Below, piece after piece: positions 5,368 through 54,857 of a stretch of DNA of 64,000 nt. Within the stretch, counting starts at the first letter, position 1. Every line of letters starts with the position of its first letter. This stretch comes from Candidatus Nomurabacteria bacterium (GTDB lineage Bacteria > Patescibacteriota > Minisyncoccia > Phycocordibacterales > UBA9973): assembly GCA_021413905.1 (NCBI GenBank), contig JAIOPO010000004.1:1597-65596 (forward strand). Reading direction: 5' to 3'. The translations under genes and the position numbers were made by a program. The notes below the pieces were generated by a model. The model made no database searches. It had not been told where the DNA came from and saw nothing but the letters and a program-made list of their open reading frames with translations.

Positions 5368-6651
5368 ATGGACAGATCAAGGAAAATGATACTTTTTGCG
5401 GGTGATATATCTATGTTATATATTGCAGGCTATTTAACACTCCTTATTCGTTTTGGTATTAAACAAGCTTCTAACGAAATACCGACTCATATTTTACCTT
5501 TTATTATTTGGACAATACTATTATCTATTATTTTTTATATTTTTAATCTTTACGAAACGACATCTGTAAAATTAACTTTTAAAAACTTAAAACAATTTTT
5601 ATTTGCATTATCTACGAGCATAGTCTCAGGTATAATGTTATTTTATTTATTTCCCTTTTCCATAACTCCAAAAACAAACTTATTATTGACTCAAATATTA
5701 TTTTCCTTATTTATTTTAATTTGGCGTAGATTTTACTACAATATTTTTTCAAAAAAATTTAAAAATCAAATTGCTTTCATTGGAAAAACAACACCTGAAT
5801 CAGAAATATTAATAAAAAATATAATTGAAAATCCACATATAGGATATTCATTTATTGGAAATTTTAAAAATTTCTCAGATTTACAAACAAGTAAAATAAA
5901 AATAAATACAATAGTTTATACTGAAAAAGATAATTCTATAAATTTGGAAGAGCTAAGCAAATCAGATTATGATTATCTAAACATAACAAAAGCATTTCAA
6001 ATCATTTTAAATAAAATACCGGTCAGTCTTATGGATAACGAAATTGCTTTAAATATTTTAGAAAACAAAAAGAACATTGTTTTTAACAGTATCAAAAGAT
6101 TAACTGATATAATATTTTCAATAACAATACTTATAATCACCTTACCAGTAACCATAATAACCGCACTTTTAATATTCATAGAAGACAGAAAAAATATATT
6201 TTATAAACAAATTCGTGTTGGTTACAAGAAAAAAAAATTTAATATAATAAAATTTCGTTCAATGAATATAAATGCCGAAAAAAATGGTGCTGTTTGGGCA
6301 ATAGAAAAAGATCCACGCACAACTTTTGTCGGAAAAATAATAAGAAAATTACATATAGATGAAATACCACAAATGATAAATATACTCAAAGGAGATATTT
6401 CACTAATAGGTCCCCGACCTGAAAGACCTGAATTTGTTGAAATTCTAGAAAAAGAAATTCCTTTTTACTTTTTACGTCAAACAATAAAACCTGGTTTCAC
6501 AGGCTGGGCACAAATAAAATTTCGATATGCACGATCAGTGGTAGACAGTAGAGAAAAATTTGAATACGATTTATATTATATCAACAATTGGAATTTGTTT
6601 TTAGACTTAGGAATTTTAATAAAAACAATTCAAATAATTTTTAGTCATTAA
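5368..6651 (+). CDS. Polyprenyl-phosphate glycosyl-1-phosphate transferase (WbaP/bacterial sugar transferase family)
   Basis: The C-terminal domain is KRLTDIIFSITILIITLPV...KFRSMNINAEKNGAVWAIEKDPRTTFVGKIIRKLHIDEIPQMINILKGDISLIGPRPERPEF. This is the Bac_transf signature. Confidence 0.9.
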   Translation: MDRSRKMILFAGDISMLYIAGYLTLLIRFGIKQASNEIPTHILPFIIWTILLSIIFYIFNLYETTSVKLTFKNLKQFLFALSTSIVSGIMLFYLFPFSITPKTNLLLTQILFSLFILIWRRFYYNIFSKKFKNQIAFIGKTTPESEILIKNIIENPHIGYSFIGNFKNFSDLQTSKIKINTIVYTEKDNSINLEELSKSDYDYLNITKAFQIILNKIPVSLMDNEIALNILENKKNIVFNSIKRLTDIIFSITILIITLPVTIITALLIFIEDRKNIFYKQIRVGYKKKKFNIIKFRSMNINAEKNGAVWAIEKDPRTTFVGKIIRKLHIDEIPQMINILKGDISLIGPRPERPEFVEILEKEIPFYFLRQTIKPGFTGWAQIKFRYARSVVDSREKFEYDLYYINNWNLFLDLGILIKTIQIIFSH

Positions 6652-24509: not shown

Positions 24510-24620
24510 TTCTTTTACATAGTGCTCCCCTGTTTTGAGTTTATTTAATAAAATAATTTCAAAACAGGGGAAGCCGAAAACCTGTTCCAGAGTAGGCACG
24601 ATCAAAAAAAATGAACAAAA

Positions 24621-49982: not shown

Positions 49983-51758
49983 TTACATAATATCAACAAT
50001 CCTAAGCCTCAGCTCTTCACGACCGCGGAAACGAGATAAATCAAAAGTCGCCAGTAAGTTTACAGACAATCCTTCGGCTAAAGGAATTTTAAAGGAATCT
50101 AAGCCAGAGAAAAATGAAATCGCTGTGGCTTTTTTGTTATTATCGGAAAAAATAATTTCTAGATGTTCTTGTGAATTATTTTTTCCGAATTTTTTCAATT
50201 TTTCTATTTTCACATTTTCAAAAAGAAAAATAGGCTTTGGATTTTCACAACCAAATGGCGCCATTTTTTCTATTTCTTTCCAATTTTTCATATTTACGTC
50301 AGTGAGAGATAATTTTAAATCAAAAAGTGTGGGAGATTGCTTTTCTGTAGCCGAGGACTGTCTGAGCGTAGCGAGTTCCGCAGGCAAAGAAAAAATATCA
50401 CCTGCACTTTTTGCACGAATATTTACAAAAGAACTAGACAAAGCTTCCTCCAAAAAATGCACTTTTTCTGTATGCACTGTAAATCCTCCCGCGCCTTCGT
50501 GCCCGCCAAATTCCAAGAAATACTCACGTGTTTCTGTCATCAACTCAACAACAGACACTGAGCCATCTGACCGACAAGAACCTTTTATAAAATCATTCTC
50601 ATCTTTACCCCACACAAACACGGGCTTTTTATGTTCATCACAAATCTTACCCGCAACAAGACCGAGCACACCCACTTTCCATTCCGGATGCCCTATAACT
50701 ATCACTTCGTTCATTTCACGTTTCTCGAATTTTTTATTCACATCTTTCATAATACCAGCAACCATTTTTTTTCTTTCGTCATTTATTTTCGTCAAATGAT
50801 TTGCCAAAATTCCTGCCTCCGTTTCATCTTGCGTTGCCAACAATTCAAAAGCTCGGCGCGGATCATCCATACGCGATGCAGCATTAAGTCGAGGCGTCAC
50901 CATAAAACCAATATCGTCTTCAGAAATATATTTCTGATCTATGCTCATCTTTGCCAAAAGTTTTTGCAAACCCGGACGCGGAGATTTCCTAAAAACTTTC
51001 AAACCAAAATATGCAATCACTCTATTTTCTCCCAACAACGGCACCATGTCAGAAAGTGTCGCTAGCCCCGCCATATCAAGCAACCATTTCTCCCAAGAGA
51101 GAGGCGCGGGTATTGTGTTTTCTGTAGCCGAGGACTGTCTGAGCGTAGCGAGTTCCGCAGGCAAAGGAAACACAATACCCGCGCCTCCATACTTCTTCAA
51201 AAAACCTTGCACCAATTTAAAAACAACCCCAGACCCACATAACATTTTTTCCGAATATTCGTCTACTTTCGGATTCAAAATAGCATACGCTCGCGGAAGC
51301 TCTGCGTGCGGAATATGGTGATCTGTAATTATAACATCAATGCCGTACACAATAGCTTGAGCTACTTCTGCCACAGCTGTGATGCCTAAATCAATCGTGA
51401 TTAAAAGCTTCACACCGTCTGCGTCCATTTTTTTTACCATTTCCAAATTCAAACCATATCCTTCAGAATTTCTTTGCGGAATATATACTTCAAAATTTTT
51501 ATAATTTAATTTATTAAAAAAGTCATTCAATATCACCGCGCCTGGAATGCCGTCGCAATCATAATCCGCATATACCAATATTTTTTCTCCAGCTTCCATC
51601 GCTTCAAAAATCCGCACGCAAGCTTTTTCCATATCGCGCATTAAAAAAGGATCGTGCATATCGCGTTCATAATTTGGATTTAGGAAAATCTCTTTTTGCT
51701 CGGCTGTTGTAATGCCTCGTTTTTCCAATAATTCATTTAATAGGCTACTTGGTTGCAT
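49983..51758 (-). CDS. recJ: Single-stranded-DNA-specific exonuclease RecJ
   Basis: It has DHH motifs (YADYDCDG, ITIDLGI, ITDHH) and the DHHA1 motif GGHEGAGG. I prefer the start at MQPSSLLNELLEKRGI (51758). The ORF-track extension to 51908 would run across the HIT gene start. Confidence 0.9.
   Translation of the reverse strand: MQPSSLLNELLEKRGITTAEQKEIFLNPNYERDMHDPFLMRDMEKACVRIFEAMEAGEKILVYADYDCDGIPGAVILNDFFNKLNYKNFEVYIPQRNSEGYGLNLEMVKKMDADGVKLLITIDLGITAVAEVAQAIVYGIDVIITDHHIPHAELPRAYAILNPKVDEYSEKMLCGSGVVFKLVQGFLKKYGGAGIVFPLPAELATLRQSSATENTIPAPLSWEKWLLDMAGLATLSDMVPLLGENRVIAYFGLKVFRKSPRPGLQKLLAKMSIDQKYISEDDIGFMVTPRLNAASRMDDPRRAFELLATQDETEAGILANHLTKINDERKKMVAGIMKDVNKKFEKREMNEVIVIGHPEWKVGVLGLVAGKICDEHKKPVFVWGKDENDFIKGSCRSDGSVSVVELMTETREYFLEFGGHEGAGGFTVHTEKVHFLEEALSSSFVNIRAKSAGDIFSLPAELATLRQSSATEKQSPTLFDLKLSLTDVNMKNWKEIEKMAPFGCENPKPIFLFENVKIEKLKKFGKNNSQEHLEIIFSDNNKKATAISFFSGLDSFKIPLAEGLSVNLLATFDLSRFRGREELRLRIVDIM
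50321..50413 (-). repeat. In-frame GC-rich hairpin element inside recJ, copy A (93 bp)
   Basis: It shares a 49-bp core (50341-50389, ttttctgtagccgaggactgtctgagcgtagcgagttccgcaggcaaag) with copy B. The core is flanked by imperfect inverted arms whose outer 9 bp pair perfectly (caaaaagtg / cactttttg). Confidence 0.8.
51101..51187 (-). repeat. In-frame GC-rich hairpin element inside recJ, copy B (87 bp)
   Basis: It carries the same 49-bp core (51118-51166). The core is flanked by a perfect 20-bp inverted repeat: gaggcgcgggtattgtgttt (51101-20) and aaacacaatacccgcgcctc (51168-87). Confidence 0.85.
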
Positions 51759-51794
51759 AAAGACAATTTTAACACAGTTTGATATAATATTGAT

Positions 51795-52205
51795 ATGGAA
51801 GAGTGTATATTTTGTAAAATAATAAAAGGGCAAATCCCTAGCACGAAAATTTATGAGGATGATAAAACCCTCGCCTTTTTGGATATTGCGCCAGTAAACA
51901 TCGGGCACGCTTTAATAATACCTAAAGAACATTATGCAAATATATATGAAACTCCGGAAGACACTATGTCAGACATAATAAAAGTAGCTAAAAAAATATC
52001 TCTCGCTGTGAAAGAAGCAGTAAAAGCAGAAGGAGTAAATATTACAATGAACAATAACCACGCTGCCGGGCAAGTAATATTCCATTCACACATTCACGTC
52101 ATCCCCCGTTTCTCAAACGATGGCTTTGAACTCTGGCACGGTAAAAGAGCATACGAAGATGACGAAATGAAATCTGTTGCTGAAAATATTACTTCAAAGC
52201 TTTAA
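51795..52205 (+). CDS. HIT-family nucleotide hydrolase/transferase
   Basis: It has CIFCKII and the histidine triad HSHIHVIP. Confidence 0.9.
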   Translation: MEECIFCKIIKGQIPSTKIYEDDKTLAFLDIAPVNIGHALIIPKEHYANIYETPEDTMSDIIKVAKKISLAVKEAVKAEGVNITMNNNHAAGQVIFHSHIHVIPRFSNDGFELWHGKRAYEDDEMKSVAENITSKL

Positions 52206-53232
52206 TTAAATTTTTATCATTAAAAAATTTAGAAAGTTTATACCCCCTACAATGAGACAAAATTCCTAAATAAGAAAACTTTGACTCTTTGAATAAATTT
52301 TGTTTCACTTTTCGTAAAATTCTTTTTTTAGTGGAAGTTCGCAAAACTTTATAATGTGTAAGAACTACATAACCAAGAAAATCCACTCCTTGCGATACTT
52401 TTCTAATTTCAACTTTTTTGGGATGTAATTTTAATTTAAGTTTCTCTTCTAAAAATTCGGAAATTTTTGGTAAAAGTAATTCAAGAAAATATTTATCTTT
52501 TGAAACGCACACGAAATCGTCACAATATCTTGCATAATATTTTACTTTTAAAACATGTTTCATAAACTGATCAAAAACATTCATATAAACATTTGCAAAA
52601 AGTTGACTTGTCACATTACCAAGAGGAAGACCTTTGCCTTCTAATTTTTCAAAACTTTTTATAATATTTTCTAAAAGCCATTTGGTTTCCAAGCACTCAA
52701 TTTTTTCAAAAAGAATTTTCTTTAAAATTTCGTGATCTATTGAATCAAAAAATTTAGAAATATCACACTTTAATACCCAAGCATTATTTTTATAATTTTT
52801 TGTTTCTTTTCTTAAAAAACTTTCAAGACGCTCAACTCCCGCGTGAGTGCCTTTATTAAATCGGCAAGCATAAGAATCATAAATAAAAGATGGATCATAA
52901 ATTTTATAAAGTTGGCGAAAAACAGCTTGATGCACTACCCTGTCTCGAACCTGTGCTTTGTGTATATGTCTTATTTTGGGGTCGCAAACATAAAAAGGCA
53001 CATATGGCTCATTTATATATGTTTTTCTTCGTAGAGAAAAATGAATATCCAAGATATTTTTTTCTAAATTAAATTCAAATTTCTGTATATCAGTTTTTTT
53101 ATTTTTTCCACGACGAAACTCTCGCCACGCAGACAAAAGATTGGAAGTGGAAATAATATGATAGAATAAATCACTATGATGACCCCCCCACTTACTTCCA
53201 ATAAAATTATCGAGCTCCCTGTTATTCTCCAT
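52189..53232 (-). CDS. Diversity-generating retroelement reverse transcriptase
   Basis: RT motifs present include VRDRVVHQAV, SYACRFNKGTHAG and KCDISKFFDSIDH. It also has the DGR-diagnostic LPLGNVTSQLFANVY ([ILV]GxxxSQ) and YARYCDDFV (YxDD). A TR/VR pair lies adjacent. Confidence 0.9.
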   Translation of the reverse strand: MENNRELDNFIGSKWGGHHSDLFYHIISTSNLLSAWREFRRGKNKKTDIQKFEFNLEKNILDIHFSLRRKTYINEPYVPFYVCDPKIRHIHKAQVRDRVVHQAVFRQLYKIYDPSFIYDSYACRFNKGTHAGVERLESFLRKETKNYKNNAWVLKCDISKFFDSIDHEILKKILFEKIECLETKWLLENIIKSFEKLEGKGLPLGNVTSQLFANVYMNVFDQFMKHVLKVKYYARYCDDFVCVSKDKYFLELLLPKISEFLEEKLKLKLHPKKVEIRKVSQGVDFLGYVVLTHYKVLRTSTKKRILRKVKQNLFKESKFSYLGILSHCRGYKLSKFFNDKNLIKALK

Positions 53233-53562
53233 GTAAAGAGATTATATAAAATAATATATCAATTGGGAATAAAAATGCCGAAACAAAATAAATTGGGCAT
53301 ACATAAAGTGTTGGAAGAAAAAACATTACTAATACTTACTACATTAATTGATTCAGCACTTAGAAGTAGGCAAGACAAAATACAAACTCTAAATCAAGCT
53401 CGTAGAGATATTGAAGTCTTGAAACATCTTATTCGCCTAGAATATGAATTAAATATAATACAAGAGAAATCTTATATAAATTTATCAGCGATGCTTGAAA
53501 ATATCTCTATGATGACAACCGGTTGGATAAAGTCTCTCGGAACACAAAAGCCCCTCTATTGA
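53176..53562 (+). CDS. avd: Avd-like accessory variability determinant (four-helix-bundle protein)
   Basis: LYKIIYQLGIKMPKQNKLGIHKVLEEKTLLILTTLIDSA...LKHLIRLEYELNII...ISMMTTGWIKSL follows the four-helix-bundle/Avd pattern, and helix 1 needs the upstream residues. An extended -10 (TGATAGAAT, 53159-67) lies 8 nt before the ATG at 53176. The alternative start is 53275. The long form overlaps the RT 5' end by 57 nt on the opposite strand. Confidence 0.72.
   Translation: MMTPPLTSNKIIELPVILHVKRLYKIIYQLGIKMPKQNKLGIHKVLEEKTLLILTTLIDSALRSRQDKIQTLNQARRDIEVLKHLIRLEYELNIIQEKSYINLSAMLENISMMTTGWIKSLGTQKPLY
53241..53246 (-). promoter_or_regulatory. -10 box (TATAAT) 8 nt upstream of the RT start codon
   Basis: The minus strand reads ttTATAATctctttacATG. 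There is no SD, so the arrangement looks leaderless. Confidence 0.4.
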
Positions 53563-53865
53563 GGAGCTTTATGAGAAACTTCTGACGGAGACCGTTGTCG
53601 GAATTACGGTTGTCGCGATTGTCGTTGCTGATGTTGAACTGACCATTGTCGTTGCGGTTCATGTTCATCGCGTTACCGTCTGAATCGAGGGCTCTTTCTG
53701 TGAGTGTCCACCAATATCACCACATATCTTTTTCAAAATATGTTGAATTTTCCGGCACTAAAGCCGTCTCTGTTTGGAATCTAAATTCCCTAGACTCTCG
53801 CAGGCAGTTTCTATTGTTTGGCAAACTGTCATCACATTTTTTAAACGGATCAGCTTAACAGCCGA
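53545..53865 (-). ncRNA. Predicted DGR TR-containing RNA (promoter-proximal spacer, TR, 3' hairpin)
   Basis: The upstream bound is the extended -10 at 53870-53878. The downstream bound is the hairpin GCTCCTC-aata-GAGGGGC (53567-53550) followed by TTTT on the minus strand. The transcript limits are inferred, not observed. Confidence 0.45.
53583..53693 (-). repeat. DGR template repeat (TR), 111 bp
   Basis: It aligns colinearly with 53958-54068 at an offset of 375. In the VR reading frame it contains 11 AAY codons (8 AAC, 3 AAT, hand count). Confidence 0.88.
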
Positions 53866-53869
53866 GTTA

Positions 53870-53878
53870 ATTATAACA
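53870..53878 (-). promoter_or_regulatory. Extended -10 promoter (TGTTATAAT) for the TR RNA
   Basis: On the minus strand, ttTGtTATAATtaac follows the target-gene terminator directly. Confidence 0.45.
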
Positions 53879-53885
53879 AAATTGT

Positions 53886-53926
53886 AAAAAAAAGTTCCCC
53901 TTGAATTAAAAAATCCAAAGGGAACA
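53886..53926 (-). terminator. Rho-independent terminator of the DGR target gene
   Basis: Minus-strand hairpin GTTCCCTTTGG-attttttaatt-CAAGGGGAAC followed by TTTTTTTT. It may also serve as the hairpin that DGR homing often needs just 3' of the VR. Confidence 0.7.
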
Positions 53927-53944
53927 AGATAATAGTCAAGAGGT

Positions 53945-54691
53945 TTAGAAACCTACTTGACGGAGACCGTGGTCGGAAAGACGGCCGCCGCGATGGCCGC
54001 TGCCGATGTAGAACTGACCATAGTCGCGGCGGATCATGAACATCGCGTGCCCGCCTGAATCGAGGGCTGCAAAACGTGTGAGTCCTTTGACATCATACAT
54101 TTTACTAGTCTCAGTCCGATGACGAAAAGCGGCGATGATGCCTTCTTTCGGCACCATAAACTTGGTGCCGGCTTCGATACCGTCATCATAGCTTTTGCCT
54201 AGCATGTCGGGCTCGTCTCCGCCGACGTGGCACATGGGATAGTCGCCTTCGGGGCGCGCTTGCTGTTCGCGAATTGCATCGGTGATGCTGTCGTAATATT
54301 TCCATACAGCATCCTTTCCGAACTTTTTCGCATAGGCTTCAAGTGCCTGATCCTCGGTGATGTCGGAAAAAATAACCTCAAGGCGAGACATTTTTTCAGT
54401 TTTCACCGGCAAAGAAAGTTTCGTCCAGTCAACCTGACGGTTGAAGAATTTTTTGTAAAATATTTCTATCTTACGTTTTTCTTCAGTCCAGTGGTCAACT
54501 TTTACACCGAGAACTTCTTCGCAGAATTTCTCGGTCAGTTCTTCAAGCTCTTTTTTGTCACTCAAGACAAAGTGTTGCGCTTGGTCAAAACTGAAACCTC
54601 CATCGCCCAGCACACGAATAATGGTGCCGGCAATTTTAAAACCAATTGCAGACAACTGCCCCGTGGTTGCGGGTTTTTGCTGATTTGTCAT
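53945..54691 (-). CDS. DGR target (variable) protein, 248 aa, C-terminal VR
   Basis: It contains the VR in its last roughly 41 codons (...ALDSGGHAMFMIRRDYGQFYIGSGHRGGRLSDHGLRQVGF*). A strong SD (AAAGGAGGAGTCTT-ATG) precedes the start. Its GC content and codon usage differ sharply from those of its neighbours. Confidence 0.88.
   Translation of the reverse strand: MTNQQKPATTGQLSAIGFKIAGTIIRVLGDGGFSFDQAQHFVLSDKKELEELTEKFCEEVLGVKVDHWTEEKRKIEIFYKKFFNRQVDWTKLSLPVKTEKMSRLEVIFSDITEDQALEAYAKKFGKDAVWKYYDSITDAIREQQARPEGDYPMCHVGGDEPDMLGKSYDDGIEAGTKFMVPKEGIIAAFRHRTETSKMYDVKGLTRFAALDSGGHAMFMIRRDYGQFYIGSGHRGGRLSDHGLRQVGF
53958..54068 (-). repeat. DGR variable repeat (VR), 111 bp
   Basis: It has 20 hand-counted mismatches to the TR. 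Nineteen are at TR adenines (coding/minus strand) and one is at a TR thymine. It ends 10 nt before the stop codon. Confidence 0.88.
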
Positions 54692-54857
54692 AAGACTCCT
54701 CCTTTAAAAAGAACATTAATTTGTTGAGCCAAAAACCACAAAGGTTATCAAGGGTGCTCATACCCTTAATATCTAAAGTATACACCTTTTAGAGTAAAAA
54801 GTCAAGAGCTAAAAATAGCTGTAAAATAAAGCTTTTCCCTATGTCAGACATATGTAT

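Follow-up and report, generated by a model that had tools for sequence, protein, structure and literature searches.

A covarying RNA domain upstream of the template repeat in a diversity-generating retroelement of Candidatus Nomurabacteria

Where does a diversity-generating retroelement (DGR) of the candidate phyla radiation (CPR) keep the RNA that surrounds its template? The question is raised by a locus in a 64,000-nucleotide stretch of DNA from Candidatus Nomurabacteria (NCBI GenBank assembly GCA_021413905.1, contig JAIOPO010000004.1, positions 1,597 to 65,596 of the forward strand), which is referred to as the window and numbered from its first letter. The locus carries a reverse transcriptase (RT) gene, an avd-like gene, a template repeat (TR) and a target gene that ends in a variable repeat (VR) (Table 1). 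DGRs are enriched in CPR genomes. Architecture B3, in which avd is reversed within a TR-(avd)-RT order, makes up 90% of the CPR set of Wu et al. 2018 (PMC5758913), and DGR clade 2 of Roux et al. 2021 (PMC8144416) is cellular and restricted to Patescibacteria. RNA around the TR is required for cDNA synthesis in the one DGR examined biochemically (Handa et al., bioRxiv 10.1101/2023.10.23.563531). Here we describe the repeats and layout of the element, a structured RNA domain that lies 5′ of its TR, and the readings that this domain and the state of the element allow.

The repeat pair and its layout

TR and VR were aligned by program. Read on the minus strand, they match over 111 bp without a gap, at an offset of 375 bp. 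The TR contains 36 A, 34 C, 23 G and 18 T residues, and 19 of the 20 mismatches fall at TR adenines (8 A-to-G, 6 A-to-T and 5 A-to-C); the sole exception is a T-to-G change that turns GGT into GGG and is silent. The mismatches are not spread evenly over the four TR bases, and the bias of adenine against non-adenine positions gives p = 1.2e-10 (Fisher exact test). These counts bear out a first-pass annotation, made from the letters alone, which had described the ungapped repeat, its 20 mismatches, the one exception and the 11 AAY codons of the TR. No second VR-like copy was found in the window when both strands were scanned with TR-A positions ignored.

Translated in the target frame, the TR reads ALDSDGNAMNMNRNDNGQFNISNDNRDNRNSDNGLR and the VR ALDSGGHAMFMIRRDYGQFYIGSGHRGGRLSDHGLR. 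TR adenines are distributed 15/18/1 over codon positions 1/2/3, none of the 22 variable codons is able to turn into a stop codon, and the theoretical repertoire amounts to ~10^19 proteins. Both repeats close with a GC-rich 13-mer, ACGGTCTCCGTCA, which reads GGTCCTCGTCAG in relatives and also codes for a conserved GLRQ. Beyond it the two sequences part, with AGTAGGTTTCTAA in the VR and GAAGTTTCTCATA in the TR, a pattern that would fit the pair of initiation of mutagenic homing sequences, IMH and IMH*. The shared end had been noted in the first-pass annotation and stands, while the palindromic character that it ascribed to the 13-mer was dropped as a feature, as it is not conserved in relatives. 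A small hairpin directly 3′ of the VR (AGGTT..AACCT) was dropped on the same ground. The strong hairpin that had been noted after the VR is present, with a 14-bp stem and a run of T8, and a hairpin of differing sequence occupies the same place in related loci. It has the form expected of an intrinsic terminator for the target gene and could also serve as a post-IMH inverted repeat.

On the minus strand the order is target gene with VR, candidate terminator, 250 nt of noncoding sequence, TR, antisense avd and RT, which is the core order of architecture B3 on the corresponding strands. Since the neighbouring genes are housekeeping genes (HIT, RecJ, PGK and TIM), the element is chromosomal. Compared with known CPR DGRs (B3; clade 2), it has the same gene order and strands, the same setting in a cellular patescibacterial chromosome, a target likewise without a Pfam or transmembrane (TM) domain, and a VR in a divergent domain of C-type-lectin (C-Lec) type, as had been anticipated; we see no difference in kind. 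Supported by the adenine bias, the RT, the Avd-like protein, the position of the VR at the 3′ end of its gene, the predicted C-type-lectin fold and recurrence in other genomes, the complete DGR proposed at first sight is upheld, and we consider it very probable that the window holds a chromosomal, apparently intact CPR-type DGR of architecture B3. The further proposal that element, target domain and layout were uncharacterised did not survive. The layout is B3 (PMC5758913) and the target is of a type typical of clade 2, whose targets are usually without TM or other recognisable domains and were predicted to include new C-Lec variants (PMC8144416). The element is a further example of a large, well-catalogued class, with a layout and a target type that are already standard in CPR.

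A scan of one genome per species yielded 25 loci of the target family. The full layout is repeated in 11 of them, and a twelfth (L010) keeps the TR without an RT; in all 12, VR and TR are 355-401 bp apart and their mismatches are biased towards adenines. In total, the cassette with adenine-only mismatches recurs in 19 further loci examined, and four more metagenome loci carry the RNA domain described below beside avd and, where the contig extends, the RT.

Several loci depart from the simple arrangement. Locus L030 pairs a single TR with two VRs (at 6491 and 9099 on the strand carrying the RNA motif), with targets on either side of the RT and mismatches at A in 18/18 and 16/17 cases. The cassettes of L046-L051 lie in differing genomic neighbourhoods (peptidase S9 and SerRS; DDE transposase; PolX and NUDIX; AbiEii and phage integrase; UvrC and Ddl; NDK and a beta-CASP protein), and this variety suggests that the cassette relocates as a unit. 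In L035, at a contig end (3251-3470), an A-poor, VR-like sequence stands at the TR position and the contig then stops. This is probably an assembly chimera across the TR/VR repeat, and it counsels caution with DGR calls on short contigs.

A structured domain 5′ of the template

The sequence from the VR end to avd was aligned for 13 loci. In every one of them a TATAMT box is followed, 6-8 nt on, by ~170 nt made up of invariant blocks and of hairpins that change in sequence while their pairing is kept. RNAalifold was then applied to a plain MAFFT alignment of 20 sequences, which included three metagenome loci, found by DNA pattern search, with a different TR and target. It returned 39 pairs, 30 of them with compensatory changes, arranged as an interrupted hairpin (P1), a 12-bp long-range closing helix and two internal hairpins. 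The closing helix runs from within the near-invariant box UAGAAACUGCCUG to a point immediately ahead of the TR. A third internal hairpin, P3 (CGGC..GCCG in the window), was recognised by eye only, as it is misaligned in the RNAalifold input.

The predicted pairs were compared with the same alignment after their partners had been slid. In the 20-sequence alignment 95.4% of cells are paired, against 36-50% with slid partners, and 30 pairs are compensatory, against 9-12. None of 500 shuffles reached any of the five observed pair measures. A covariance model built from this alignment (R1) matches the window once, at 53693-53863 on the minus strand, over its full length and with 155.7 bits. R1 matches 30 loci, among them 6/6 loci that were fetched through RT homologues only 56-58% identical; in each of these, no more than 35 nt separate the end of the domain from a TR that differs from its VR, which is of a different class, at adenines only. 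For the model alignment of 30 sequences the paired fraction of cells is 96%, against 38-48% with slid partners, and 35 of the 39 pairs are compensatory.

No Rfam family corresponds to the domain at gathering thresholds across the window, and a search of 53400-54000 up to E = 10 returned only noise. R1 finds no match in the DGR loci of BPP-1, ANMV-1 and Vibrio phage VP58.5. We found no description of a structured RNA in CPR DGRs in the literature, and it goes unmentioned in PMC5758913 and PMC8144416; a survey of DGRs that included those of CPR was limited, for RNA folding, to 40 nt on the 5′ side of the TR and 100 nt on its 3′ side (Handa et al., bioRxiv 10.1101/2023.10.23.563531). The DNA pattern TTYGCCNNNNNNTAGAAACTGCCTG gave 17 hits in metagenome contigs, 9 true and 8 due to chance. 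The chance hits lie in unrelated, mostly GC-rich sequence, and both of the viral_contigs hits are among them. The only Rfam hit in the window is a DUF805b RNA motif (RF02914) at 24564-24598 on the plus strand, with 41.5 bits, above its gathering score.

On its other side, the TR is followed at once by a near-invariant sequence, CAGAAGUUUCUC. This 3′ box marks the divergence of TR from VR, much like that of IMH* from IMH, and its GUUUC(U) is complementary to (A)GAAAC of a 5′ box in the RNA domain. Variants keep the complementarity: GAAAU occurs with AUUUC in two unrelated loci, GGAAC with GUUCC in one, and UGAAAC with GUUUCA in one. The 7-bp duplex between the two boxes would be 93.8% paired, against at most 57% with partners slid; compensatory changes occur at three of its pairs, a number reached by 4 of 500 shuffles. 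We regard this as supportive of a 5′/3′ box duplex, on the basis of little variation. A pairing of the 3′ box with the 10 nt upstream of the TR (ACAGAAAGA) was also considered and dropped, as it is inconsistent across loci.

Beyond the 3′ box, a stem-loop of 7-18 bp is found in 20/20 loci and differs in sequence in almost every one. A T-rich tract follows it in all 20, which in most gives the U-rich UUUUGUGUU (TTTTGTGTT). Because the avd stop codon (53560-53562) sits in its loop, the stem-loop looks like a bidirectional terminator for the TR RNA and avd.

Table 1. Positions of the parts of the retroelement in the window, in order of position.
Feature	Position	Strand	Remarks
DGR RT, 347 aa	52189..53232	-	LGNVTSQ (I/LGxxxSQ) and YCDD motifs
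avd (four-helix-bundle-like), long form, 128 aa	53176..53562	+	matches to Pfam bAvd and NCBIfam DivGenRetAVD
Promoter-like site for RT gene (TTCCCA-17-TATAAT)	53241..53269	-	inside avd; consensus match only, 10/12
Stem-loop AGCTCCTC-AATA-GAGGGGCT, then TTTGTGTT	53541..53568	-	terminator-like on TR strand, shared with convergent avd
Conserved 3′ box GAAGTTTCTC	53573..53582	-	directly after TR; near-invariant in all TR-bearing loci
TR	53583-53693	-	36 adenines, 11 AAY codons
Structured 5′ domain of the putative TR-containing RNA (171-nt model)	53694..53863	-	RNAalifold, covariance model R1
Near-invariant box TAGAAACTGCCTG of RNA domain	53801-53813	-	
Predicted parts of RNA domain			P1 interrupted hairpin; long-range closing helix around hairpins P2 and P4
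Closing-helix strands of RNA domain			CUGCGAGAGUC / GACACUCACAG
Conserved single-stranded stretch of RNA domain			GGTGATATnGATGG
TATAAT (-10-like) box	53870..53875	-	6 nt upstream of RNA domain; putative promoter of TR-containing RNA
Hairpin downstream of VR	53894-53925 (53886..53925 with T8)	-	14-bp stem, then T8; terminator scan
Target (variable protein) gene, 248 aa	53945..54691	-	NCBI hypothetical protein K8Q94_02090
VR	53958-54068	-	target residues 208-245 of 248; ungapped match to TR
Promoter-like site upstream of target gene (TTGACT-17-TATACT)	54777..54805	-	consensus match only, 10/12

Role of the RNA and state of the element

A comparison with the Bordetella element is instructive. 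There, the DGR RNA consists of a short avd segment, the TR and a 140-nt spacer, which holds in order an Avd-binding stem-loop, the priming adenosine, a strand that forms the "cPRT stop duplex" with the avd segment upstream, a thumb ring of single-stranded RNA and a long interrupted stem that binds the Bordetella RT (bRT); of 278 DGRs that contain Avd, 207 have such a stem-loop just downstream of the TR (Handa et al., bioRxiv 10.1101/2023.10.23.563531). The window element shares with the BPP-1 DGR (mtd-avd-TR-brt; 8ub7) a homologous RT (E 1e-48) with conserved template and dNTP contacts, an Avd accessory protein, adenine-specific differences, a GC-rich common 3′ end of TR and VR followed by IMH/IMH*-like divergence, a predicted stem-loop directly 3′ of the TR, a putative duplex between the 5′ and 3′ TR flanks, and a target with a predicted C-type-lectin fold. 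It differs in how these parts are laid out. In BPP-1, avd lies upstream of the TR on the same strand and gives the 5′ strand of the stop duplex, and all protein-binding RNA is in the spacer 3′ of the TR, whereas in the window avd is antisense, the 3′ tail would span just ~45 nt, and the structured domain, of 171 nt, is on the 5′ side of the TR. The host is moreover cellular, and the target is not a tail fibre.

These features would be accommodated by a discrete noncoding RNA of ~320 nt, transcribed on the minus strand from the TATAAT box to the stem-loop and U tract at ~53541 and composed of the multi-helix 5′ domain, the TR, the short conserved 3′ box and the terminal stem-loop. The GAAAC of the 5′ box would pair with the GUUUC just 3′ of the TR and so enclose the template, like the Bordetella stop duplex; the terminal stem-loop would be the positional counterpart of the Avd-binding stem-loop; and the 5′ domain would provide the scaffold on which the RT docks, a function that in Bordetella resides in the spacer. 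RT and Avd would then copy the TR into cDNA, misincorporating opposite adenines, and the cDNA would replace the VR by homing, guided by the GC-rich 3′ end common to both repeats, ACGGTCTCCGTCA, and by the flank in which they diverge. As many as 22 codons could be recoded, giving ~10^19 variants of what may be the ligand-binding face of a probably cytoplasmic target.

By analogy with Bordetella, the RNA domain is probably the RT-Avd scaffold, and we infer that the docking scaffold may have moved to the 5′ side in B3 elements. The full proposition goes further: that CPR-type (B3) DGRs use a self-contained ~320-nt noncoding RNA with its own promoter and terminator, in which the RT/Avd scaffold has moved from the 3′ spacer to the 171-nt 5′ domain and is clamped to the 3′ flank of the template by GAAAC:GUUUC, and that this is an undescribed RNA family, absent from Rfam, which marks CPR DGRs and their decayed remnants and defines the minimal RNA for reconstitution. 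We regard the chances for and against this proposition as evenly balanced. Three points weigh against the RNA model set out above for the window: GUCUC stands opposite GAAAC in five loci, which leaves an A.C mismatch; the covariation of the GAAAC:GUUUC duplex comes from four cells only; and where the RNA ends, which promoter drives it and which proteins the 5′ domain touches are matters of deduction.

The 171-nt domain might, alternatively, act as a leader or regulator or be a small RNA in its own right, controlling for example TR transcription or termination of the target, with the post-TR hairpin acting only as a bidirectional terminator. It comes after the terminator of the target and a TATAAT box, and the 3′ hairpin, which is preceded by an A tract and followed by a U tract, holds the avd stop codon. 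The domain also persists in loci without TR, avd and RT, although slow decay would equally leave it there. A role of this kind is harder to reconcile with the position of the domain, which ends 0-35 nt before the TR in every intact locus, and with its distribution, which tracks the RT/Avd lineage across unrelated target families. There is, in addition, complementarity, with compensatory changes, between the 5′ box of the domain and the 3′ box that follows the TR, and TR-surrounding RNA is needed for cDNA synthesis in the biochemically studied case cited above. We think it unlikely, if far from negligible, that the domain serves such a purpose and is not the scaffold for RT and Avd.

We then ask whether the element is still at work. 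As all parts of the DGR are intact in the window, it is likely to be active now. The RT is full-length with its catalytic Asp residues and SQ motif, the avd reading frame is intact, the RNA domain matches R1 from end to end, and the TR has no indel. The alternative is a fossil, that is, a recently inactivated DGR whose TR/VR differences stem from past homing and in which nothing is diversified at present. Decay is common in the family, and several relatives (L010, L012, L017 and L023) are decayed cassettes among which adenine-only mismatches are still seen: L010 lacks the RT and most of avd, yet has 19/19 mismatches at A, and the other three are reduced to target and RNA domain. Adenine-only mismatches for this reason prove past, not present, activity. 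The window also has one non-A mismatch, albeit a silent one, and a variant VR did not turn up in public assemblies. The only other assembly of the locus (L001, a Logan contig of run SRR15633504) is identical, and possibly derives from the source data of the metagenome-assembled genome (MAG) itself; the 90% cluster of the target has a single member. These observations, like the decayed relatives, count against present activity. Given the intact components, we nevertheless judge a fossil to be improbable and retain the reading of a currently active element as the likely one.

The decayed relatives are informative in themselves. L010 (6001-7200 of DATKGV010000004.1; identical in sequence to L039) retains an intact target, RNA domain and TR, but avd is cut down to its final 18 codons and no RT occurs within 6 kb; it is an orphaned or decayed cassette. 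In L012 (6831-7002), L017 (6811-6947) and L023 (6726-6879), target and RNA domain remain, TR, avd and RT are deleted, and the break falls at or just after the TR start. The C-terminal 120 nt of the orphan targets are still G+C-rich, A-poor and VR-like. L011 (5044-5330 of DATKGV010000013.1) has, after the RNA domain, a TR-like stretch rich in AAC that does not correspond to the VR of the target homologue next to it, and no RT nearby. Twelve target loci had at first been taken as lacking a DGR; four of them proved to carry the RNA domain, the three deleted cassettes and L011 with its foreign TR. Diversification of orphan targets in trans was considered and rejected, as the L010 TR and the L011 VR, both from one MAG, do not match.

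Proteins and surroundings

The RT contains the motifs LGNVTSQLFANVY and YARYCDD, as had been read from its translation at first sight. In DGR RTs, (I/L)GxxxSQ stands in place of the QGxxxSP of group II RTs. The protein matches Pfam RVT_1 with E 1.9e-25, and its best match in the PDB is Bordetella bRT (8ub7; E 1.1e-48, 169 bits), ~95 bits ahead of group II and retron RTs in the same search (~73 bits, at most 74; E ~1e-19). The alignment retains counterparts of bRT R74, I76, G182, Q187, D138 and D215/216, with L in place of I181. The RT also has 171 matches among phage records, at 35-42% identity, including those of Bordetella phages, ANMV-1 and VP58.5. In NCBIfam the curated cut-offs are not reached by the group II maturase model (group_II_RT_mat, TIGR04416; 146 bits against 300), retron St85 (69 against 235), Drt2 (74 against 390) or Drt3a (89 against 200). 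By its motifs and closest matches, the RT is shown to belong with the DGR RTs and to keep the residues predicted from bRT to be catalytic and template-contacting, in agreement with the DGR-diagnostic motifs named in the first-pass annotation. That the RT is of another class (group II intron, retron or DRT/UG) and the TR/VR pair an ordinary partial duplication is hardly credible and already refuted: the weak NCBIfam hits and the 'retron-type' or 'maturase family' names of its relatives in databases point that way, but the scores lie far under the cut-offs, bRT is the best solved relative by a wide lead, Rfam revealed neither a group II intron RNA nor a retron RNA, and a duplication would not leave 19 of 20 differences at a single base, nor do so again in 19 further loci.

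The presence of an Avd-like reading frame, also part of the first-pass annotation, is confirmed by matches to Pfam bAvd and NCBIfam DivGenRetAVD; that it lies on the plus strand, antisense to all other DGR parts, had not been mentioned there. Gene callers place its start at 53275, which gives a 95-aa form that scores 34.6 bits against bAvd from profile position 25. The 128-aa form scores 37.3 bits (E 4e-9) from profile position 7, where the gathering score is 40, and the match to DivGenRetAVD has E 2e-10, likewise under its cut-off. Scores that are significant yet under the curated cut-offs temper the assignment. Residues 4-127 are kept in relatives at 46-82% identity, and an avd gene occupies the same place in those related loci whose contigs reach that far. 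The long form is probably real, because its residues 4-33 are conserved in relatives. In this form, avd and RT starts overlap head to head by 57 nt (53176-53232) on opposite strands, and the conserved regions of both proteins meet to within a few nt in relatives. With such an overlap, each promoter must lie inside the other gene.

The target has no match to any Pfam or NCBIfam domain, FGE-sulfatase and DUF1566 of Pfam included, and no signal peptide or TM segment; its residues 10-30 model as a helix. It is annotated as a Candidatus Nomurabacteria MAG protein and has 75 relatives in the protein database, all of ~250 aa and none with a Pfam domain; those with names are all from Nomurabacteria, Paceibacterota or Patescibacteria. 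The family alignment shows a conserved body and a last ~40 residues in which fixed and hypervariable positions alternate on the scaffold ALDSxGxAMxMxRxxxGxFxVxxxxRxxRxxxxGLRQVxF. The hypervariable columns coincide with the VR residues, and the alternation is, at the level of the alignment, the pattern that repeated rewriting by a DGR gives.

A model of the target (AlphaFold2, 69 sequences; pLDDT 92, pTM 0.81) has four N-terminal helices (~95 residues) followed by an alpha/beta domain. The C-terminal half is predicted to adopt a C-type-lectin fold with the VR in its last strands, and the display of the VR on a fold of this kind, which the first-pass annotation had proposed to look for, is found in the prediction: the VR-bearing domain is CLec/FGE-like. 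In fold comparisons the model scored 8.1 with PorK, 7.7 with SUMF2, about 7 with EgtB/OvoA, and 6.8, 5.3 and 4.9 with the DGR variable proteins TvpA, Mtd and TaqVP, respectively. A Foldseek search of the model against the PDB gave nothing significant, so the relationship to known folds is remote. Compared with TvpA (2y3c), Mtd (1yu0), TaqVP (5vf4) and the FGE-sulfatase superfamily, the target has no sequence-level match, is much smaller, and has a helical N-terminal domain and no export signal. The G+C content is 46% in the target without its VR, 33% in the window, 28% in the RT, 51% in the TR and 64% in the VR; in 11 related loci the target equals its locus or lies 0-10 points above it, and the RT is always 3-10 points lower.

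Near the element, a recJ-like reading frame (49983-51908, minus strand) contains two in-frame copies of a palindromic element (50321-50413 and 51101-51187). They share a core of 65 nt that is 91% identical, each is an inverted repeat with arms of 34-37 nt, and both translate as ...LPAELATLRQSSATE... They are reminiscent of in-frame palindromic elements such as the RPEs of Rickettsia.

With the target model, a C-type-lectin fold is now assigned, as a prediction, to a Pfam-less family of ~250-aa proteins with at least 75 members in Nomurabacteria and Paceibacteria, a family that includes two-target variants and many decayed cassettes. The template of these elements is embedded in a strongly covarying RNA whose large structured part lies 5′ of the TR, as opposed to 3′ in the only biochemically studied DGR. 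If the RNA domain is the RT-Avd scaffold, it would give a concrete minimal RNA for reconstituting a CPR DGR and a sensitive sequence-and-structure marker for such elements in fragmentary MAGs, and it would represent a natural rearrangement of DGR RNA parts against which the generality of the rules of the Bordetella ribonucleoprotein could be tested.

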